A DNA stretch of 48,822 bases from a virus (lineage: Duplodnaviria > Heunggongvirae > Uroviricota > Caudoviricetes). Location: the IMG/VR virus record IMGVR_UViG_2541047788_000006; one strand, written 5' to 3'. Below the pieces are notes generated by a model that saw only the letters and a program-made list of their open reading frames with translations, was not told the origin of the DNA and ran no database searches. Within the stretch, counting starts at the first letter, position 1; each line of letters opens with the position of its first letter. Below, one piece after another: positions 3,077-48,822 of this stretch. A program made the position numbers and the translations under genes.

Positions 3077-4271
<1,195 letters not shown>

Positions 4272-4506: not shown

Positions 4507-5082
4507 CTACGGCAGTGCTGGCCATTCAATATCCTGTGCAGTTGACGTATCAACACGGTTCAGCAATACCCGATACTTTTTCCATGCTTCCAGCAACGAG
4601 ATTTCTTCCTCCGTTGCAATTTCCAGATCTGCAGCATCCTGAAGCGGCGCAATATGCTCACTGGCTACCTGCATCAGGTTGTTTTTTGTTTCTTCCGCCT
4701 CCCGGATCCGGAACAGTTTTTCTGCTTCCGTATCCTTCACCCAGGCTGTGCCGTTCCACTTCTGAAACTCCCCTTCCGGGGATAACCAGGTGACATTTTC
4801 CGGTAATGGGCCAAGTTCAGAAATAAATAACGCGTCGCCGGAAGCCACGTCATAGACGGTTTTACCCCGATGATCTTCAACGAGATGCCACGATGCCTCA
4901 TCACTGTTGAAAACAGCCACGAAGCCAGCCGGAATATCTGGCGGTGCAATATCGGTACTGTTTGCTGGCAGACCTGTATGAGGCGGAATATATGCGTCAC
5001 CTTCACCAATAAATTCATTAGTTCCTGCCAGCAGATTATAAATTTTTATGGTCCGTGGTTGTTCACTCATTCTGAATGCCAT
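4507..5082 (-). CDS. tfa: tail fiber assembly protein (Tfa)
   Basis: 191-aa ORF with the Tfa-family N-terminus ([35 protein letters not shown]); immediately downstream of stf. Its first ATG overlaps the stf stop (TAATG), with an alternative ATG at 5070. Confidence 0.85.
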
Positions 5083-29320: not shown

Positions 29321-29524
29321 CATTTTCACTTTTTTAAATCCAACGACAGACGGCTGGCATTTAAGTATTGTGAAATATTATCAAATGTAATCATCATTGA
29401 TTTACAAAAGATACATTTTGCCCCGAAAGGATTCATGTCAGAAACATCAAAAGATGATGTTCTATACTGGGAACCATGACAACACGGGCATCTAAAGTGA
29501 ATATGGTTTGTAATATTGTCTACC

Positions 29525-29737
29525 TCAAAGCGCCACTACATGAACAGCGGCAGGACCTTTAGGTCCGTTCTCAATACCAAATTCAACTTCCTGATTCTCA
29601 GTTAATGTTTTGAAATCGTTGCTCTGAATTGCTGAGAAATGGACAAACACATCTTTGCTGCCATCTTTCGGCGTGATGAAACCAAAACCTTTTTCAGGGT
29701 TAAACCATTTCACTAAACCAGTCATTTTGTTAGACAT
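29525..29737 (-). CDS. cspI: cold shock protein CspI
   Basis: 70 aa [38 protein letters not shown]... with RNP1/RNP2 motifs; long AT-rich 5' leader (29738..30100) typical of cold-shock genes. Confidence 0.9.
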
Positions 29738-30100
29738 AATTATTACCTTTTGAAGAAATTAGCCCTTGGGCAGAATGGTCCGAAAAAAAATATCAGAGAG
29801 AAAAACCAACAAGGAAATCTCAAGAGGTACAAATAATAAAATTATAACAATGACTGCTTCAGATAAATTTGTAACAAACCAGAACACCATTAACGCATGA
29901 TTAACCACCCATAGCAAGGATTACTTTTGTAAAGAAAAACACAGCAATGAAAGAATAGCTTTATTTATTAATAATAACGTGTCATTCTGATTAAGACCTT
30001 TTATCTTACCCTTAAGATTTCAGGAATTTTGGCTCATGGAAGAGTCCTTTTTATTTAAATTTTACATTCCGCGATGTAAATGTTCCGATTTAATATTACC

Positions 30101-32127: not shown

Positions 32128-32409
32128 TGAGATTGTGGTGCTTTTTGTGGGAGTCATCCACTTACGCACTTTGTTTTGCCATGCCAGCAGTTAGCTTCTG
32201 CTGTAAAACTATTCATGCAGCAAACCTGCACTTCACCACAATGGTTAGCATACTTTTCCTGATTAAGATTTTGCCAAATATGCTAGCCATTGTTTCATGT
32301 ATTGGACCTCCTTACTTTTTATTAAAGAGATCCAATATTCACTACTCTGTCCGTATCTCTACTCAGGCATCAGCCTTCTTCGTTATCGTATACAGACGAG
32401 CGATGAATT

Positions 32410-32625
32410 TTAATCAGTAATGATGACATTTGCTGCTGCAGGACCTTTAGCACCACTCTCTATAGAGAAGGTAACCTTTTGACCTTCAAATAAGGTTCGA
32501 TAATTATCATTCTGAATCGCAGAAAAATGCACAAACACATCTTTACTACCATCAACAGGAGAAATAAAGCCGAAACCTTTATCAGCGTTAAACCATTTTA
32601 CTAAACCAGTCATTTTATTTGACAT
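32410..32625 (-). CDS. cspB: cold shock protein CspB
   Basis: 71 aa [67 protein letters not shown]... Confidence 0.9.
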
Positions 32626-32925
32626 TCTACATTCCTTAACTTGAGCCTTTCGGCATAAATGGTTTGCATAACAGAAACGACTTCGTACTTAATTGGAGAG
32701 ACTCAAAGAAGGAATAAGTGAATAACACCTGAAATGAGAACTGCTTTAGTAAACTACTTCGTATATCGTCTGTTCTTCAAACCGACGCAATCATTAACGC
32801 ATAGTTGAACATATGAAGCAATGTTTATTTTAGACATCCAGCCATCTTCAACCCCATCAAAAAACTATAGCTTTCTTCAGGAACGTGTGTATAGTGCGCC
32901 AAGTTATCAGTATTAAGGAATTTTT

Positions 32926-35721: not shown

Positions 35722-35973
35722 TTATTCTTCTGCAAAAGCAGAAAAGCCAGCTTTTATTCCGATCTCTTTCAATGCCTGTAATGAAGTGACAAACTCACCT
35801 TCGCGCAAGATAAATCCGTCCGTGACCCGAGCATCCACAAAATTAATTAACGCAGCCCCATTCTTTCGCAAACACATAATGCGGTAATGACTAACAAGAT
35901 TTCCATTTTCAACGCACACAGCATAGAGGCCATCTTCACAAAAAATTTTACGCAGTTCTTCGATGTTCATCAT
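35722..35973 (-). CDS. hypothetical protein
   Basis: 83-aa ORF between the hok terminator and the rem-position ORF; no recognisable motif. Confidence 0.4.
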   Translation of the reverse strand: MMNIEELRKIFCEDGLYAVCVENGNLVSHYRIMCLRKNGAALINFVDARVTDGFILREGEFVTSLQALKEIGIKAGFSAFAEE

Positions 35974-36189: not shown

Positions 36190-36345
36190 TTACTCCTCAG
36201 GTTCGTAAGCTGTGAAGACAGCGACCTCCGTCTGGCCGGTTCGGATTCGTACCTCGCAGAGGTCTTTCCTCGTTACCAGTGCCGTCACTATGACGGTTAA
36301 ACAGATGACGATCAGGGCGATTAACATCGCCTTTTGCTGCTTCAT
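36190..36345 (-). CDS. hokD: Hok-family type I toxin
   Basis: 51 aa MKQQKAMLIALIVICLTVIVTALVTRKDLCEVRIRTGQTEVAVFTAYEPEE; the ORF track's in-frame upstream extension (to 36402) would be mok-like leader. Confidence 0.9.
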   Translation of the reverse strand: MKQQKAMLIALIVICLTVIVTALVTRKDLCEVRIRTGQTEVAVFTAYEPEE

Positions 36346-37467
36346 AGCCTGCTTCTCCTTGCCTTTCGGCTCGTAAGAGGCTAACCTACATGTGTCTAGC
36401 ATGAAATTGGCCTCAGATTAATGTTAAGCGTCTTGCAGGACGCGTAATGTTAACTGGGGCTTTTCTCTATCTGCCTTTGGTGTTCATGCCCGAGGCAGAT
36501 AGCCTCAAGCACCCGCAGCCATTCTACTTAACTACCGTTACCTCGCCAATATGAAATCAGTCAGAAAGGCGATCCATAAGAACAATAGCAAGACAATAAA
36601 TCGCCATTACAGCCGTAATAGCCAGCGCACATTTGAGAACCAGCACCACAACCTCCTGTATTGGACGTAGACCAGTCCTGATGAATATGAGGCTGTCTCG
36701 TCAGTGATTCAATACAACTATTGGGTATAGTTTCTCTGATTTTTTCTGTGGAAATGGGGCACAACCACTAGTCACCACCAGCACTTCTTTTAATACGCAA
36801 AGTCCGACACAAGCTAACCTTCTAGTCCGCTTTGAGCGAAAAACAGCCATAATTTAGTGCCACGTATATAATGATAGAGCTATTCAAGCTAGCAATTCAC
36901 ATGTAAAAATTCAGAGGGTAGAAGCACATAGTTATAAATGTTGGCTCCATCGACAAATTGCGGTCTCAAGTACATTTATTAATGTTGCCCCCGCATTAAC
37001 AAATCATCAAGGTGACGACATGGACGATATTAATATCAGCCTCGACGAACTTAACACTATTGATTTATCCCCCTTAATCCAGAGTAAGCTGCCAGTTACC
37101 TGCTTTGATATCACAAAGTATCTTTCTAGCCTAGGTGATGGAAGAGCGGAGATAAGACTGCTAACCCATATTTGCGGTTTTCACTTTCGTCCCGAAAATC
37201 CACAGGTACCATTTGGTCCGTGCTTTCAAAGCAGCCAAGGTAGATCTGCAATTCCGGATGACATTAACGGGTTGTCGCTGGAGGTACTTTCTCAATTTTG
37301 CCCGACGATAGAGCTACCCGAACTTCAAGCTCGTATTGCTGATACACTTTGGGTTCGTAAAATTGGTGGAATCCGTTTTCCTTTGCTGGCAGTCCGTGCT
37401 TATTATGCGTCCAGTATAGCTATTATGACATCGCAAGGGACGTGGGTTAGTGCTTTAGAACGCCTAG

Positions 37468-38662
<1,195 letters not shown>

Positions 38663-41686: not shown

Positions 41687-42134
41687 TTGCTTTTTCTATA
41701 AGTTCGTCAGTTTCACGATCCACTACGGCAGGATCAGCAAAAAGCAGTCCGGACTCCACCACATCGCCATATTCTTTGTTTAACCCGGCGATCATGTACG
41801 TGATGCTTTTTCCGTCACTAATTTCACGATACAACCTGAAATCATTAATCCGGATAGCCTCCATAATTGCAGGCACTAGCGCCGTGAACTTTTCACGCTT
41901 ATCCCTGGTGTCGATAGCCTTCCAGCGTTCGAATATCTTCACTCGATTAACGCCAAGCGCTCGCTGATCAACCGCGCCACCTTCATCTGTGACACGCTGA
42001 ACATCGATGTTCGGGCGCTCTTTCAAAGCCCAGAATGCTTCAGTGATTAATATCGTCGCCTGCTCCTGTGTCATTCCTGGTCGACATATCCAGGCATCCA
42101 GAGCCTCACGAGCCTGTTCAGGAGTGATTTTCAT
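41613..42134 (-). CDS. hypothetical early regulator (occupies the cII position downstream of the cro-like gene)
   Basis: 173-aa ORF immediately downstream of dicC-like gene; assignment by position only. Confidence 0.4.
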   Translation of the reverse strand: MKITPEQAREALDAWICRPGMTQEQATILITEAFWALKERPNIDVQRVTDEGGAVDQRALGVNRVKIFERWKAIDTRDKREKFTALVPAIMEAIRINDFRLYREISDGKSITYMIAGLNKEYGDVVESGLLFADPAVVDRETDELIEKAIAFKLAYRQQYQQKAGWNYEPSFC

Positions 42135-42345
42135 TGTTCAACCGCCCCGCCCGCTTCGTCTTACGATATTCGTCATAAACCTTGGGATCATACAGAAGCT
42201 CGCCGCCAGATGCCTCCTGTAGACGCATCGCGCGACCTTCAGGAACCAGCTCTTGCCATTGAGAAACAGCAGATGGGTCAACGCCAGCAGCTTTCGCTAC
42301 TTTGGCTTTCGTACCGTAAAAATTAATTACGTCTGATTTAAACAT
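42118..42345 (-). CDS. dicC: Cro-like regulator DicC-type
   Basis: C-terminus ...VPEGRAMRLQEASGGELLYDPKVYDEYRKTKRAGRLNNENHS matches DicC as recalled; divergent from the dicA-like gene; start at MFKSDV (the ORF track extends to 42372). Confidence 0.75.
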   Translation of the reverse strand: MFKSDVINFYGTKAKVAKAAGVDPSAVSQWQELVPEGRAMRLQEASGGELLYDPKVYDEYRKTKRAGRLNNENHS

Positions 42346-42354
42346 CGCACCTCC

Positions 42355-42410
42355 AGTATTGAGTTTTCTCAATGCTAATCACTCAAGGAATCTCAAGTCA
42401 AGGGTTATTA
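42355..42410. promoter_or_regulatory. candidate operator region between divergent dicC-like and dicA-like genes
   Basis: Palindrome TTGAG-TTTT-CTCAA (42359..42372) and nearby direct CTCAAG repeats in the intergenic region. Confidence 0.35.
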
Positions 42411-42422
42411 AGATATCTAAAT

Positions 42423-42830
42423 ATGAACGAGAAAACTTTAGGTCAACGCATTAGAGAAAGACGTAAGCAGGTAGGTTTAAGTCAAAACGGTTTAAGCAAA
42501 GCTGCTGGCGTATCTGGCTCATCAATTTCATTATGGGAAAGTGACCATACAGCCCCGCGCGGGCAAAATTTGCATCGCCTCGCCGAGGTATTGCAATGTT
42601 CACCAACCTGGATACTGTTTGGCGACGAGGACAAAACACCAGCTCCCCCTGTTTCACTCGATAGTGCCTTAGACTTATCGGAAGATGAGTTAGAGATGCT
42701 GCGTTTGTATCGCGCACTTCCTAAATCAGAGCAACAAGCACAACTCAGCGAACTCCGCGCCCGCGTTGAGAATTTTAATCGCCTGTTCACCGAGCTATTA
42801 GAGGCTCGCAAACGCAACAAGCATCAATAA
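42423..42830 (+). CDS. dicA: HTH_XRE-family repressor (DicA/CI-like)
   Basis: 135 aa; N-terminal HTH (LGQRIRERRKQVGLSQNGLSKAAGVSGSSISLWE) and ...VLQCSPTWILFGDEDK... resembling DicA as recalled; start at the ATG 42423 inside ORF 42372..42830. Confidence 0.8.
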   Translation: MNEKTLGQRIRERRKQVGLSQNGLSKAAGVSGSSISLWESDHTAPRGQNLHRLAEVLQCSPTWILFGDEDKTPAPPVSLDSALDLSEDELEMLRLYRALPKSEQQAQLSELRARVENFNRLFTELLEARKRNKHQ

Positions 42831-43022
42831 TCATCCCTTCACAAAATTTTAAAGCCTTACATTTCAATGTATTGGCTTTATCTTGCGCCAATACTTGAGT
42901 TTTCTCATCAAAAAGCCTTGGCGAAAAATAATGAGAAAACTAAATTACCTCCATCAACACACCGCACGGTGTTCTCAGCAAACAGTTCCGCTACCCCGGC
43001 GTTAAGGGGAAATGAGGTCAGC

Positions 43023-43178
43023 ATGGATACTATCGATCTTGGCAACAACGAATCTCTGGTGTACGGCGTGTTTCCAAACCAGGACGGCACGTTCACCGCA
43101 ATGACGTATACCAAAAGCAAAACGTTTAAAACCGAAAATGGTGCCCGTCGCTGGCTGGAAAGAAACTCAGGTGAGTGA
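43023..43178 (+). CDS. ydfA: small protein YdfA-like
   Basis: 51 aa MDTIDLGNNESLVYGVFPNQDGTFTAMTYTKSKTFKTENGARRWLERNSGE; first gene of the dicB-type operon. Confidence 0.6.
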   Translation: MDTIDLGNNESLVYGVFPNQDGTFTAMTYTKSKTFKTENGARRWLERNSGE

Positions 43179-43179
43179 T

Positions 43180-43755
43180 ATGGATTTCGACACAATCATG
43201 GAAAAGGCTTACGAAGAATACTTCGAAGGCCTTGCCGAAGGCGAAGAAGCTCTCAGCTTCAGTGAGTTTAAACAGGCACTCAGAATAAGAATGCGCTCTC
43301 ACAATGACGCGGAGCACAAATATGAGAAGCAAAATCAGACCGCAGAAAATTTTGTTCTGGAACCCGGAGAAACGCTTTTCAAAATTCCCGTTACGTGCCC
43401 CATTTGCGGTTTTACATCAGAAGAACTTGACGACTCCTGTAACAATCAGGAAACAACCAAGTATGTCGAAGATGATACCGAGTGCGCACGAAGAACGATT
43501 ATATCCACGAGTCCAAACTCCAGGACCAATAAATCTCACTTTGAGAGGGTGATTAATCCACTCCCCCAAACCAATAAAAAAGATGCCGGAGGACAAAAAA
43601 ACCAATGGAACAACGGGATATCTGTCAAAAAAAGACGTTCCATTAAAGACAAACAACGCAGCGCCAACAACTGTAAGCGCTTTATACCAGTAATCAATTT
43701 TCATGTTCTTAAGCGGATTTATTGGTGGTTGCGACATTGCTTAATGAATCCTTAA
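43180..43755 (+). CDS. YdfB/YdfC-like protein (single 191-aa ORF)
   Basis: Starts MDFDTIMEKAYEEYFEGLAEGEE...; contains CPICGF; TGATATG junction with ydfA. Confidence 0.5.
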   Translation: MDFDTIMEKAYEEYFEGLAEGEEALSFSEFKQALRIRMRSHNDAEHKYEKQNQTAENFVLEPGETLFKIPVTCPICGFTSEELDDSCNNQETTKYVEDDTECARRTIISTSPNSRTNKSHFERVINPLPQTNKKDAGGQKNQWNNGISVKKRRSIKDKQRSANNCKRFIPVINFHVLKRIYWWLRHCLMNP

Positions 43756-44014
43756 AACTGTGGTGATTTTAAGGATACCACCTCGCCTGACGTGGTTAAA
43801 AGCAGGCACACAACACGAAAGCGCACGGCGAAGTTCGTCTCACTGTACGGTGTCGTCAAATTTAATTCGACCGTGCGCTTCCGGTTGTGGCAACCCGCGA
43901 AATGGCGCGGCGGTAAGTATGGCGGGGTTATTCCTTCCCCGTTGAGGACACCGAGTTGTCAGGTTGACCATACGCTTAAGCGACAACCCCGCTGCAACGC
44001 CCTCTGTTATCAAT

Positions 44015-44067
44015 TTTCTGGTGACGTTTGGCGGTATCAGTTTTACTCCGTGACTGCTCTGCCGCCG
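44015..44067 (+). ncRNA. dicF: DicF small RNA (ftsZ-targeting sRNA)
   Basis: Sequence TTTCTGGTGACGTTTGGCGGTATCAGTTTTACTCCGTGACTGCTCTGCCGCC matches the 53-nt DicF sRNA as recalled; followed by GTTTTT; located just upstream of dicB. Confidence 0.8.
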
Positions 44068-44241
44068 TTTTTAAAGTGAATTTTGTGATGCGGTGAATGC
44101 GGCTAAGCGCACGCGGAACAGTTAAAACCAAAAACAGTGTTATGGGTGGATTCTCTGTATCCGGCGTTAATTGTTAACTGGTTAACGTCACCTGGAGGCA
44201 CCAGGCACTGCATCACAAAATTCATTGTTGAGGACGCGATA

Positions 44242-44430
44242 ATGAAAACGTTATTACCAAACGTTAATACGTCTGAAGGTTGTTTTGAAATTGGTGTCAC
44301 TATCAGTAACCCTGTATTTACTGAAGATGCCATTAACAAGAGAAAACAAGAACGGGAGCTATTAAATAAAATATGCATTGTTTCAATGCTGGCTCGTTTA
44401 CGTCTGATGCCAAAAGGATGTGCACAATGA
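44242..44430 (+). CDS. dicB: cell division inhibitor DicB (MinC-dependent)
   Basis: 62 aa MKTLLPNVNTSEGCFEIGVTISNPVFTEDAINKRKQERELLNKICIVSMLARLRLMPKGCAQ. Confidence 0.9.
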   Translation: MKTLLPNVNTSEGCFEIGVTISNPVFTEDAINKRKQERELLNKICIVSMLARLRLMPKGCAQ

Positions 44431-44618
44431 ATTCAGCATTTGCGCTTGTTCTGACAGTTTTTCTTGTTTCCGGAGAGCCAGTTGATATTGCAGTCAGTGT
44501 TCACAGGACAATGCAGGAGTGTATGACTGCAGCAACCGAACAGAAAATTCCCGGTAACTGTTACCCGGTCGATAAAGTTATTCACCAGTATAATATCGAA
44601 ATCCCGGCAGGTCTTTAA
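44427..44618 (+). CDS. ydfD: small membrane protein YdfD
   Basis: 63 aa MNSAFALVLTVFLVSGEPVDIAVSVHRTMQECMTAATEQKIPGNCYPVDKVIHQYNIEIPAGL; ATGA overlap with dicB. Confidence 0.8.
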   Translation: MNSAFALVLTVFLVSGEPVDIAVSVHRTMQECMTAATEQKIPGNCYPVDKVIHQYNIEIPAGL

Positions 44619-44711
44619 AACAGTTCCGTAATAAATATCCGGTTTCATTCTTATATGCCAGCAATGGCAGGGATTTGTTCATCCTTAAATCTGTCATGAG
44701 GTTAAAACAAA

Positions 44712-47183
44712 ATGAGTAAAGTCTTTATTTGCGCCGCTATTCCTGACGAACTGGCAACAAGGGAAGAAGGCGCTGTGGCTGTAGCCACAGCCATTGAAGC
44801 TGGCGACGAACGCCGTGCTCGAGCAAAATTTCACTGGCAATTCCTGGAACATTATCCGGCTGCTCAGGACTGCGCTTATAAATTTATTGTCTGCGAGGAT
44901 AAACCTGGCATACCCCGCCCTGCCCTCGATTCATGGGATGCTGAATATATGCAGGAAAACCGCTGGGATGAGGAGTCTGCTTCTTTTGTCCCGGTTGAGA
45001 CTGAATCCGATCCGATGAACGTCACTTTTGACAAGCTGGCCCCTGAAGTACAGAACGCTGTCATGGTTAAGTTCGACACATGTGAAAACATCACCGTTGA
45101 TATGGTTATTAGCGCACAGGAATTGTTGCAGGAAGACATGGCAACATTCGACGGACATATCGTTGAAGCGTTGATGAAAATGCCAGAAGTTAACGCCATG
45201 TATCCGGAGCTTAAGTTGCACGCCATTGGGTGGGTTAAGCATAAATGTATTCCTGGTGCTAAATGGCCCGAAATTCAGGCAGAGATGCGCATCTGGAAAA
45301 AACGTCGCGAAGGTGAACGCAAGGAAACCGGAAAATACACGTCTGTTGTTGATCTCGCCCGCGCCAGAGCCAATCAACAGTACACTGAAAATTCAACAGG
45401 AAAAATCAGCCCGGTCATTGCTGCCATTCATCGCGAATACAAGCAGACATGGAAAACACTGGATGACGAACTGGCCTACGCTCTCTGGCCTGGTGATGTG
45501 GATGCCGGAAACATTGACGGCAGCATCCATCGCTGGGCAAAAAATGAAGTTATCGATAACGACCGCGAAGACTGGAAGCGTATCTCGGCATCAATGCGCA
45601 AACAGCCTGATGCCCTTCGCTACGACCGCCAAACTATTTTTGGCCTTGTCCGTGAACGTCCGATCGACATTCACAAAGATCCCGTAGCACTGAACAAATA
45701 TATCTGCGAATACCTGACGACAAAGGGCGTGTTTGAGAATGAAGAAACAGACCTGGGCACTGTTGATGTTCTCCAGTCATCAGAAACACAAACTGATGCA
45801 GTGGAAACTGAGGTATCTGATATCCCAAAAAATGAAACCGCGCCGGAAGCTGAACCATCTGTAGAGCGTGAGGGGCCGTTCTATTTCCTCTTCGCAGATA
45901 AGGACGGAGAAAAATACGGTCGCGCAAACAAACTTTCTGGTCTGGATAAGGCACTGGCTGCTGGCGCCACTGAAATCACAAAAGAAGAATATTTTGCCCG
46001 AAAAAATGGCACATACACGGGCTTACCGCAAAATGTAGATACCGCTGAAGATTCAGAACAACCAGAGCCGATAAAAGTTACCGCTGACGAAGTAAACAAA
46101 ATTATGCAGGCAGCCAATATCATCCAGCCTGACGCCGATAAGTTGCTTGCTGCATCACGTGGTGAATTTGTTGAAGGGATTAGTGACCCGAATGATCCGA
46201 AATGGGTTAAGGGGATCCAGACCCGCGATTCTGTGAACCAGAACCAGCATGAATCGGAACGGAACTACCAAAAAGCGGAACAAAACAGCCCAAATGCGTT
46301 ACAAAACGAGCCAGAAACGAAACAGCCTGAATCAGTGGCGCAACAGGAAGTGGAAAAAGTCTGCACCGCCTGCGGTCAGACCGGCGGCGGCAACTGCCCT
46401 GATTGTGGCGCGGTAATGGGCGACGCAACATACCAGGAAACATTCGATGAAGAGTATCAGGTTGAAGTTCAGGAAGATGATCCGGAGAAAATGGAAGGCG
46501 CTGAACATCCACACAAGGAGAACACTGGCGGCAATCAGCATCACGATAGCGATAATGAAACTGGCGAGACGGCAGATCACTCAATTAAGGTGAACGGTCA
46601 TCACGAAATCACATCCACCAGCAGGACGTGTGACCATCTAATGATCGACCTTGAAACCATGGGAAAAAATCCTGATGCCCCGATCATCTCAATAGGTGCA
46701 ATATTTTTCGATCCGCAAACCGGAGATATGGGACCGGAATTTATTAAGACTATCGATCTGGAAACTGCTGGCGGAGTCATTGATCGGGACACCATTAAAT
46801 GGTGGTTTAAGCAATCACGCGAAGCGCAATCTGCCATTATGACCGATGAAATCCCGTTAGATGATGCACTGTTACAATTGCGGGAATTTATCGACGAAAA
46901 CTCCGGTGAATTTTTTGTTCAGGTCTGGGGAAATGGAGCCAACTTCGACAACACGATTTTGCGCCGTTCATACGAACGGCAGGGGATCCCCTGCCCGTGG
47001 CGTTACTACAACGATCGCGATGTACGCACAATCGTTGAGCTGGGGAAAGCCATAGACTTCGATGCCAGAACGGCTATTCAATTCGAAGGTGAGCGCCATA
47101 ATGCACTTGATGACGCCCGTTACCAGGCAAAATACGTTTCAGTTATCTGGCAAAAACTGATCCCGAGTCAGGCTGATTCTTAA
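44712..47183 (+). CDS. ydfE: large early-region protein with C-terminal DnaQ-like (DEDDh) 3'-5' exonuclease domain
   Basis: 823 aa; C-terminal ~190 aa contains MIDLETMG (Exo I), a middle acidic motif, and HNALDDARYQAKY (Exo III with His); upstream CxxC...CxxC zinc-ribbon (CTACGQTGGGNCPDCG); occupies the exo/recombination position upstream of xis-int. Confidence 0.75.
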   Translation: MSKVFICAAIPDELATREEGAVAVATAIEAGDERRARAKFHWQFLEHYPAAQDCAYKFIVCEDKPGIPRPALDSWDAEYMQENRWDEESASFVPVETESDPMNVTFDKLAPEVQNAVMVKFDTCENITVDMVISAQELLQEDMATFDGHIVEALMKMPEVNAMYPELKLHAIGWVKHKCIPGAKWPEIQAEMRIWKKRREGERKETGKYTSVVDLARARANQQYTENSTGKISPVIAAIHREYKQTWKTLDDELAYALWPGDVDAGNIDGSIHRWAKNEVIDNDREDWKRISASMRKQPDALRYDRQTIFGLVRERPIDIHKDPVALNKYICEYLTTKGVFENEETDLGTVDVLQSSETQTDAVETEVSDIPKNETAPEAEPSVEREGPFYFLFADKDGEKYGRANKLSGLDKALAAGATEITKEEYFARKNGTYTGLPQNVDTAEDSEQPEPIKVTADEVNKIMQAANIIQPDADKLLAASRGEFVEGISDPNDPKWVKGIQTRDSVNQNQHESERNYQKAEQNSPNALQNEPETKQPESVAQQEVEKVCTACGQTGGGNCPDCGAVMGDATYQETFDEEYQVEVQEDDPEKMEGAEHPHKENTGGNQHHDSDNETGETADHSIKVNGHHEITSTSRTCDHLMIDLETMGKNPDAPIISIGAIFFDPQTGDMGPEFIKTIDLETAGGVIDRDTIKWWFKQSREAQSAIMTDEIPLDDALLQLREFIDENSGEFFVQVWGNGANFDNTILRRSYERQGIPCPWRYYNDRDVRTIVELGKAIDFDARTAIQFEGERHNALDDARYQAKYVSVIWQKLIPSQADS

Positions 47184-47255: not shown

Positions 47256-47507
47256 ATGAGCGAAGTAATCATGATTGTCTCTCCCGGCAAATGGGTATCC
47301 GAAGAGCAGTTAATTGCGCTGAAAGGAATAAAAAAAGGTACGTTAAAAAAGGCCCGGGAAAAATCGTTTATGGAAGGAAGGGAATATAAGCATGTCGCTC
47401 ATGACGGTATGCCATGGGATAACAGTCCATGCTTTTACAACCTGGAAGAAATTGATCGCTGGATTGAGCGCCAGGCATCAGCAAGACCAAGACGTCATCT
47501 TACTTGA
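47256..47507 (+). CDS. xis: excisionase-like protein
   Basis: 83-aa basic protein immediately upstream of the integrase; assignment mainly by position. Confidence 0.55.
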   Translation: MSEVIMIVSPGKWVSEEQLIALKGIKKGTLKKAREKSFMEGREYKHVAHDGMPWDNSPCFYNLEEIDRWIERQASARPRRHLT

Positions 47508-47526: not shown

Positions 47527-48822
47527 ATGAGAGAAGTTGAAATGAAATATCCGACAGGCGTGGAAAACCATGGAGGGAAATTACGTATCTGGTTTGTTTA
47601 TAAAGGCGTAAGAGTCAGGGAAAACCTGGGGGTTCCTGACACAGCAAAAAACAGGCGCGTTGCAGGTGAGCTACGCGCCTCTGTTTGTTACGCAATAAAA
47701 ACTGGTGTTTTCGACTATGCAAAACAGTTTCCCTCCTCACGCAATCTGGAAAAATTTGGTGAGGCCCGACAAGATTTAACCATAAAAGAACTGGCTGAAA
47801 AATTTCTGGCACTGAAAGAAACTGAAGTCGCAAAAACATCACTCAACACATACCGTGCCGTCATCAAAAATATCCTGAGCATAATCGGTGAAAAAAATCT
47901 TGCCTCATCGATTAATAAAGAAAAATTACTGGAGGTTCGTAAAGAGCTACTGACTGGATACCAGATCCCCAAAAGTAACTATATTGTTACACAACCAGGG
48001 AGATCGGCTGTAACTGTAAATAATTACATGACAAATCTTAACGCCGTGTTCCAGTTTGGTGTTGATAACGGTTACCTGGTAGATAACCCGTTTAAGGGGA
48101 TCTCGCCATTAAAGGAATCAAGAACCATTCCGGATCCTCTTTCGCGGGAGGAATTCATCCGTCTTATCGATGCGTGCAGAAATCAGCAAGCCAAAAATTT
48201 ATGGTGTGTTTCTGTTTATACTGGCGTTCGCCCTGGTGAGCTGTGTGCACTTGGATGGGAGGACATAGATCTGAAAAATGGAACAATGATGATCAGGAGA
48301 AATTTAGCAAAAGACCGTTTCACGGTACCAAAAACACAGGCGGGAACCAATCGGGTCATTCATCTTATTAAGCCAGCAATCGACGCTCTCCGGAGTCAGA
48401 TGACATTAACGAGACTGAGCAAAGAGCATATCATTGATGTTCACCTCAGAGAGTATGGCAGAACAGAAAAACAAAAATGCACCTTTGTTTTTCAACCTGA
48501 AGTGTCAGCGAGAGTAAAAAATTATGGTGACCATTTTACCGTTGACTCAATAAGGCAGATGTGGGACGCAGCGATAAAACGTGCCGGACTCCGCCATCGA
48601 AAATCATATCAGTCGAGACATACTTATGCCTGCTGGTCGCTGACAGCTGGTGCTAACCCGGCATTTATAGCAAACCAGATGGGCCATGCAGATGCGCAAA
48701 TGGTATTTCAGGTATACGGAAAATGGATGTCTGAAAACAATAATGCACAGGTAGCTTTGTTAAATACACAGTTAAGCGAGTTTGCCCCAACCATGCCCCA
48801 TAACGAAGCAATGAAAAATTAA
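47527..48822 (+). CDS. int: tyrosine-type phage integrase
   Basis: 431-aa ORF; C-terminal catalytic region with R...HxxR...Y pattern (SRHTYACWSL...HADAQMVFQVYGKWM); stop TAA at the window end; start may be 47542 (MKYPTG...). Confidence 0.9.
   Translation: MREVEMKYPTGVENHGGKLRIWFVYKGVRVRENLGVPDTAKNRRVAGELRASVCYAIKTGVFDYAKQFPSSRNLEKFGEARQDLTIKELAEKFLALKETEVAKTSLNTYRAVIKNILSIIGEKNLASSINKEKLLEVRKELLTGYQIPKSNYIVTQPGRSAVTVNNYMTNLNAVFQFGVDNGYLVDNPFKGISPLKESRTIPDPLSREEFIRLIDACRNQQAKNLWCVSVYTGVRPGELCALGWEDIDLKNGTMMIRRNLAKDRFTVPKTQAGTNRVIHLIKPAIDALRSQMTLTRLSKEHIIDVHLREYGRTEKQKCTFVFQPEVSARVKNYGDHFTVDSIRQMWDAAIKRAGLRHRKSYQSRHTYACWSLTAGANPAFIANQMGHADAQMVFQVYGKWMSENNNAQVALLNTQLSEFAPTMPHNEAMKN

Follow-up and report, generated by a model that had tools for sequence, protein, structure and literature searches.

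An intact, near-identical copy of the dicF-dicB-ydfD module in an apparently complete Qin/mEp460-type prophage of Escherichia coli

Few prophage products of Escherichia coli have been studied as thoroughly as DicF, DicB and YdfD, and work on the cryptic Qin prophage of strain K-12 has led to a detailed picture of how they act. DicF is a small RNA (sRNA) that, together with Hfq, represses ftsZ, xylR, pykA and manX (PMC5069750; PMC10448788); it pairs with xylR through its 5' end and with ftsZ and pykA through its 3' region (PMC5069750). DicB binds MinC, gets to the septum via ZipA and dissolves the Z ring, and via MinC it also stops mannose uptake and the entry of phage DNA that depends on ManYZ (PMC6832061). 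Lysis by YdfD depends on division and is counteracted by DicB, and the protein is reported to bind and inhibit IspG; it must be intact, terminal deletions being the only changes tested (PMC8835842). In K-12, DicF arises only from the transcript of dicBp, a promoter regarded as PL-like, no internal promoter having been found. RNase III generates a 190-nt species and RNase E the 5' end of the 53-nt DicF, the antirepressor Rem relieves repression by DicA, and dicBp is derepressed spontaneously in about 1% of cells, with DicF accumulating in stationary phase (PMC10448788). The genes flanking dicF vary between strains (PMC5069750), and the same module genes have been noted in the functional phage mEp460_ev081 (PMC10448788).

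Here, we describe the copy of this module carried by IMG/VR virus record IMGVR_UViG_2541047788_000006, the whole 48,822 nucleotides of which are referred to as the window, and compare it with the annotated Qin region of K-12 MG1655, which was aligned to the window and served as the K-12 reference. We are highly confident that the interval 44015-44618 is the part of an early-left operon (PL-like and driven by dicBp) that comprises dicF, dicB and ydfD, and that this operon belongs to a complete lambdoid prophage of the Qin/mEp460 type, located at the E. coli Qin site. The features on which this reading is based are collected in Table 1.

Table 1. Features of the module, its operon and its control region in the window, with the related cassettes of other prophage lineages.
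Feature	Position	Strand	Basis
dicF sRNA (53 nt)	44015-44067; 44015..44072 with the U tract of the intrinsic terminator	+	Rfam and K-12 alignment
dicB (62 aa)	44242-44430	+	K-12 alignment, Pfam, NCBIfam
ydfD (63 aa)	44427-44618	+	K-12 alignment, Pfam
Exonuclease, full-length, 823 aa (intact form of the K-12 pseudogene ydfE), next gene after ydfD	44712..47183	+	ORF list, annotation, family search
Excisionase	47256-47507	+	ORF list, annotation
Integrase, end of the early-left operon and of the window	47542-48822	+	ORF list, annotation
DicF precursor leader, including the RNase III cut region for the 190-nt species (217 nt)	43798..44014	+	K-12 similarity
First 34 ydfB codons (as in K-12), fused to an open frame of 157 codons	43180..43755	+	Runs antisense through the membrane-protein gene
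106-aa three-helix membrane-protein gene, antisense to the operon	43417..43737	-	Homologues, third-position substitutions, AlphaFold
ydfA (51 aa)	43023..43178	+	51/51 identical to K-12; Pfam DUF1391
Predicted dicBp (PL-like) with operator copies	42895..42946	+	TTGGCG-N17-TAAATT (42918-42946), copies at 42895-42908 and 42931-42944
dicA-like repressor (135 aa)	42423..42830	+	NCBIfam DicA, Pfam HTH_3
Predicted operator, perfect palindrome TTGAGTTTTCTCAA between dicC and dicA	42359..42372	.	Motif search
dicC-like Cro-type regulator (75 aa)	42118..42345	-	NCBIfam DicC, Pfam P22_Cro
rem, antirepressor of DicA in K-12	35722..35973	-	81/83 identical to K-12 Rem
Cassette in other lineages	L009 3477-4142; L010 3474-3929; L013 566-1060		Homologue loci

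The sRNA is recognized by family model as well as by direct alignment. When the whole window was scanned with Rfam at gathering thresholds, five matches were obtained, and the one to DicF (RF00039; plus strand, 44016-44067) spans positions 1-52 of the 52-position model with 72.5 bits (E 3.7e-14; gathering score 48). Alignment of 44015..44067 to K-12 dicF gives 52 identical nucleotides out of 53, the sole change being a C to G at nt 53 (window position 44067), which lies directly 3' of the terminator stem, ahead of the U tract, and is the unpaired last model position in the Rfam consensus. Because nt 1-52 are as in K-12, both pairing regions, at the 5' end and in the 3' region, are unchanged, and DicF carries no seed-region changes. 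The minimum-energy hairpin is the same in both alleles (-16.6 versus -15.9 kcal/mol) and is followed by UUUUU, and the duplex energies with the K-12 ftsZ leader are alike for the two alleles in a crude whole-length calculation that ignores intramolecular structure. C53G is a common natural variant: the exact 71-nt sequence with this allele is found in 890 complete E. coli records and that with the K-12 allele in 3048, and dicF is present in roughly three of every four complete E. coli genomes. A match to STnc100, a Salmonella sRNA candidate in Rfam, over the dicF-dicB spacer and the 5' end of dicB (44065-44274) stayed below threshold (34.5 bits versus a gathering score of 47) and was not accepted.

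The two coding sequences downstream of dicF are equally well preserved. DicB is identical to the K-12 protein over all 62 residues, its gene containing one synonymous change, and it matches the DicB families of Pfam (PF05358, E 1.9e-40) and NCBIfam (NF049927, 132.8 bits, cutoff 100). YdfD shares 61 of 63 residues with K-12 (changes V6A and D55Y), has both termini unchanged and matches Pfam PF07358 (DUF1482) with an E-value of 9e-26 at its full length of 63 aa. The spacing of the genes has been maintained, with 174 nt between dicF and dicB in the window and in K-12 and the same 4-nt ATGA overlap between dicB and ydfD. No frameshifts, including in dicB, and no premature stops were found in dicF-dicB-ydfD (44015-44618) in the alignment with K-12. 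The first-pass annotation of this DNA had described DicF, a 62-aa DicB and YdfD as contiguous and intact at 44015-44618, a description that these comparisons bear out for the RNA and for both proteins: the interval fits the three features exactly, and each is near-identical to its K-12 copy.

The module is embedded in what appears, by its gene content and extent, to be a complete, full-length mEp460/HannyBb-like prophage. The window is collinear, at 99.99-100% identity, with the prophage adjoining rspB/rspA in E. coli CFSAN061770, except for two 1.2-kb insertions, and the annotation of that prophage includes terminase, portal, capsid, tail, lysis, Q antiterminator, replication, 823-aa exonuclease, xis and int genes. 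At its start the window lies in a fragment of ydfJ, the gene interrupted by Qin in K-12, and it ends with the stop codon of the integrase gene. Two IS5 copies (338-aa InsH) are present at 3077-4271 and 37468-38661 and absent from the CFSAN061770 prophage; each disrupts a gene, in one case the invertase gene pinQ and in the other a gene with a DUF4209 domain. Because of these two copies elsewhere in the prophage, its viability is not certain. The four other Rfam matches of the window (4541-4739, 29498-29883, 32394-32786 and 36340-36514) are typical of Qin and correspond to IS009 RNA, two cspA-type thermoregulator leaders, which lie within a stretch homologous to the cold-shock gene region of K-12 Qin, and Sok antisense RNA beside hokD. 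The operon itself is ordered repressor, promoter, small genes, dicF, dicB, ydfD, exonuclease, xis and int, which is, by analogy, the early-left (PL) layout of lambda with DicB in the place of Kil.

As the first-pass annotation had proposed, the module lies downstream of a dicA-like repressor gene, which is on the same strand at a distance of 1.2 kb and whose product belongs to the DicA family (NCBIfam DicA, 239 bits, cutoff 101). The divergently oriented dicC-like gene likewise encodes a family member (NCBIfam DicC, 165 bits, cutoff 130). Both regulators differ from their K-12 counterparts: DicA is identical at 75 of 135 positions (55%), with differences through the helix-turn-helix region, and DicC at 53 of 76, with the divergence in its N-terminal part. 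By these comparisons, the DicA/DicC pair of the window is a different immunity allele from that of K-12. Relative to K-12 Qin, the N-terminus of DicC, the operators, DicA and the dicBp operators have been exchanged as one block (42247-42951), the flanks of which are 98-99.7% identical to K-12.

The predicted operators of this allele are few and all lie close to the repressor gene. With at most two mismatches, the 14-mer TTGAGTTTTCTCAA has three sites only in the 48.8 kb of the window (42359, 42895 and 42931), all of which flank dicA, and the copies at 42895 and 42931, with one and two mismatches, are both at the predicted dicBp; with three mismatches the total equals chance, and the informative sites are those with two or fewer. 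Three operators per region are described in the literature, but only a single clear copy was detected between dicC and dicA in the window. In K-12 Qin another palindrome (TGTTAG..CTAACA) occupies the corresponding places, between dicC and dicA and ahead of ydfA, and the K-12 promoter, TTGACC-N17-TAATCT, carries its own operator over the spacer and the -10 element, the same layout as that of the predicted dicBp of the window. Moreover, the distance from the predicted TTGGCG-N17-TAAATT promoter to the conserved ydfA leader equals that in K-12. These features make 42918-42946 a plausible dicBp. A generic sigma-70 scan of 42000-44800 flagged neither this proposed promoter nor the DicF terminator, the loop of which is over the limit of the scan, and gave counts no higher than those in shuffled sequence, which makes it uninformative. 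The joint exchange of the repressor and both operator sets is what would be expected of a working immunity module, and we infer that the repressor binds at these sites. Likewise, control by Rem and the proposed operators for this 55%-identical DicA allele are put forward by extension from K-12.

Identity to K-12 is about 98% over the sequence that starts 217 nt before dicF (at 43798) and runs on downstream, and the entire K-12 DicF processing region is covered by it. A long-range outer helix between GUGCGCUU (43873-43880) and AAGCGCAC (44105-44112) is predicted in the window and in K-12; the folds of the 281-nt precursor have weak z-scores (-1.1 and -1.3), and the minimum-energy folds of the two sequences differ in detail, with the outer helix common to both, and we accordingly attach little weight to it.

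The sole unusual feature of the locus is the cassette immediately upstream of this leader, not dicF, dicB or ydfD. Over 520 bp (43278-43797) the window is without K-12 similarity, and this segment replaces the 3' end of ydfB and all of ydfC. The K-12 order ydfA-ydfB-ydfC-dicF-dicB-ydfD-ydfE, a feature of the K-12 copy only, is thus not found here: ydfB breaks off after codon 34 and ydfC is missing. The ydfC-replacing version occurs in phage HannyBb as well as in 806 of 5426 complete E. coli genomes. On the minus strand it encodes a 106-aa protein whose homologues, as little as 34% identical in other genera, come from Yersinia, Herminiimonas, Reinekea and metagenomes; among them, the motifs WYKA and GxGEWxNHP are invariant and an Asp-Tyr before WYKA and a Leu within the second motif are nearly so. 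The AlphaFold model is confident (pLDDT 85) and consists of three helices and a hairpin. Searches for this protein gave no match in Pfam, NCBIfam, PHROGs, PADLOC or a PDB sequence search, and Foldseek of the model against PDB and BFVD gave no significant match. In position and orientation the gene resembles sieB of lambda, an annotated superinfection-exclusion gene that is also in opposite orientation inside the early-left operon, but sieB is longer (184 aa versus 106 aa) and follows N rather than coming directly after the repressor gene. A relationship of the 106-aa protein to SieB was rejected, as no sequence relationship was detectable (hhalign probability 0.1%).

The antisense arrangement is found in four prophage lineages, namely that of the window, an Escherichia sp. 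Rac-like prophage, a metagenomic enterobacterial type and one from Yersinia enterocolitica; in the three other prophage types, the homologue comes directly after the repressor gene and is antisense to early-left genes. In all four lineages, the membrane-protein gene is without TTA, CTA and TCA codons, so that the operon-sense frame starting from the ydfB ATG is open for 191 codons across the antisense gene. Each of seven homologues outside this arrangement has between 3 and 17 such codons, and the chance of having none, calculated with the codon usage of the window itself, is about 0.10-0.15 per lineage. Within the overlap, the third codon positions of the 106-aa frame take most of the substitutions (for example, 11, 7 and 35 at the three codon positions between the window and the Rac-like prophage, L009 in Table 1), which indicates that there the minus-strand frame alone is under purifying selection. 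A short motif at the beginning of the operon-sense frame, IPxxCP(I/V)CGF, lies immediately beyond the overlap; it is encoded in all four lineages, with synonymous codon differences. In a few strains the plus-strand frame is frameshifted, and PGAP labels it either 'hypothetical protein' or 'ydfB incomplete'. The simple idea that the 191-aa plus-strand ORF is purely an annotation artefact was rejected in view of its stop-free state in all four lineages and the conserved motif outside the overlap. With three effectively independent lineages only, these observations hint that the ability to translate the operon-sense frame is being preserved. The frame could also encode a genuine small protein whose tail is free of constraint. 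That selection maintains translation of the operon transcript through the antisense gene, either against Rho-dependent polarity or as a true overlapping gene pair, is a tentative idea that we think is probably wrong; if true, the translated plus-strand frame could shield dicF, dicB, exo, xis and int from Rho-dependent polarity.

Several other elements accompany the cassette. A perfect 10-bp inverted repeat, ATCCTTAAAA N9 TTTTAAGGAT (43748-43776), lies directly upstream of the start of the minus-strand gene and covers its likely Shine-Dalgarno sequence. Nearby GCCTG..CCAC..CAGGC..GTGG segments, conserved in the four lineages out to about 43830, could form interleaved helices. In the Escherichia sp. 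Rac-like prophage, which has kilR and exonuclease VIII, the same antisense cassette is followed by DicF (76.7 bits), after which a C4 antisense RNA, isrK and an Ash/Rha-type gene stand in place of dicB (L009 2757-3221). This DicF without dicB indicates that DicF travels separately from dicB. For the question of how a phage can accommodate opposite-strand genes in an early operon, the cassette is a lead, if a modest one.

The position of the cassette between dicBp and dicF raises the question of whether the intact genes could be only weakly coupled to their promoter. According to this alternative, the transcript would be attenuated before reaching dicF by collision, antisense pairing or Rho, and little DicF and DicB would be made upon derepression. 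The segment 43278-43797 does carry a selected opposite-strand gene, transcription of which could collide with or reduce the operon transcript, and K-12 DicF depends on the dicBp transcript, as no internal promoter was found (PMC10448788). However, the plus-strand frame is open across the entire cassette, and its translation could protect the transcript; the scan of 42000-44800, which also missed the DicF terminator, gave no plus-strand terminator-like site between dicBp and dicF; dicF, dicB and ydfD are conserved downstream of the same arrangement in the many E. coli genomes and in HannyBb; and xis, int and the exonuclease gene rely on the same operon transcript. We therefore consider such uncoupling quite improbable and retain the reading of the interval as part of a dicBp-driven early-left operon.

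In this operon, expression on derepression, processing and all of the activities are extrapolated from experiments with K-12, and the proposed course of events is as follows. In the lysogen, the operon would be kept silent by the DicA-type repressor, bound to palindromic operators that lie over dicBp and at the dicC/dicA promoters. DicA could be inactivated via Rem, encoded 6.5 kb away, or by spontaneous switching with DicC, upon which the transcript from dicBp would run through ydfA, the ydfB-derived frame, dicF, dicB, ydfD, exonuclease, xis and int. RNase III and RNase E would release the 53-nt DicF from this transcript, with its own terminator providing the 3' end, and DicF together with Hfq would pair with the ftsZ ribosome-binding region, xylR, pykA and manX. 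DicB would take MinC to ZipA at midcell, with the result that the Z ring is dissolved, and via MinC it would block ManYZ-dependent DNA entry; in view of its identity to the tested K-12 protein, both the division block and the inhibition of ManYZ can be expected here. YdfD would cause division-dependent lysis, reportedly by inhibiting IspG, and would be counteracted by DicB. The description of the locus as a cassette for cell-division inhibition and superinfection exclusion is supported, with one refinement: a division block by DicF and DicB and exclusion by DicB have been published for the K-12 sequences, but YdfD acts in lysis and has no part in exclusion (PMC8835842).

Since the prophage looks complete, full derepression would most likely be the start of lytic growth, and by analogy the module most likely acts as an early-left (PL-type) function like Kil of lambda; exclusion would chiefly be relevant when derepression is partial or spontaneous. 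One may go further and see the module as serving a live phage early in its lytic cycle, by a transient division block and metabolic remodelling, and not as a cassette for exclusion or for the benefit of the lysogen, with DicB exclusion no more than a by-product of leaky or ectopic expression. The prophage is full-length and near deposited phage genomes, of which mEp460_ev081 has been described as a functional temperate phage with the same genes (PMC10448788), and the module occupies the position of kil in lambda, between a PL-like promoter and exo-xis-int. On the other hand, the spontaneous derepression of dicBp in K-12 and the presence of DicF in stationary phase (PMC10448788) make effects at the level of the lysogen possible too. 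We give this view an even chance; it concerns the role and not the identity of the interval and is compatible with the main explanation, an early-left operon segment of a complete Qin/mEp460-type prophage.

The closest described system is the cryptic Qin dicBF operon of K-12 MG1655 (ydfABC-dicF-dicB-ydfDE), which is at the same chromosomal site adjoining rspB. Qin and the window have rem, hokD/sok, csp genes and lysis genes in common. The window also has head and tail genes together with intact int, xis and 823-aa exonuclease genes, most of which K-12 Qin lacks. K-12 Qin is a remnant of the phage type represented by the window. Phages mEp460_ev081, Tritos, HannyBb and PhiR42_1 are 95-98% identical to the window over most of its length and 97-99% identical within the dicF-dicB-ydfD block. 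HannyBb has the same ydfC-replacing cassette as the window (99.8%), whereas Tritos differs in its repressor and retains both ydfB and ydfC; DicF is explicitly annotated in the record of this phage. More distant parallels are Kil of lambda and KilR of Rac, which are also small division inhibitors encoded in an early-left operon under the control of the prophage repressor, but which are unrelated to DicB in sequence and are without an sRNA partner, DicB working via MinC and ZipA. The finding adds little to what is known of the three products themselves. In a full-length prophage and with a different DicA allele, the locus could be a natural system for the role of the module in a live phage as opposed to a cryptic remnant. 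The dicF, dicB and ydfD genes described here are a near-exact copy of the textbook module in its ancestral setting, a complete lambdoid prophage; this is already known and ordinary, the same setting being in print for mEp460_ev081 (PMC10448788).
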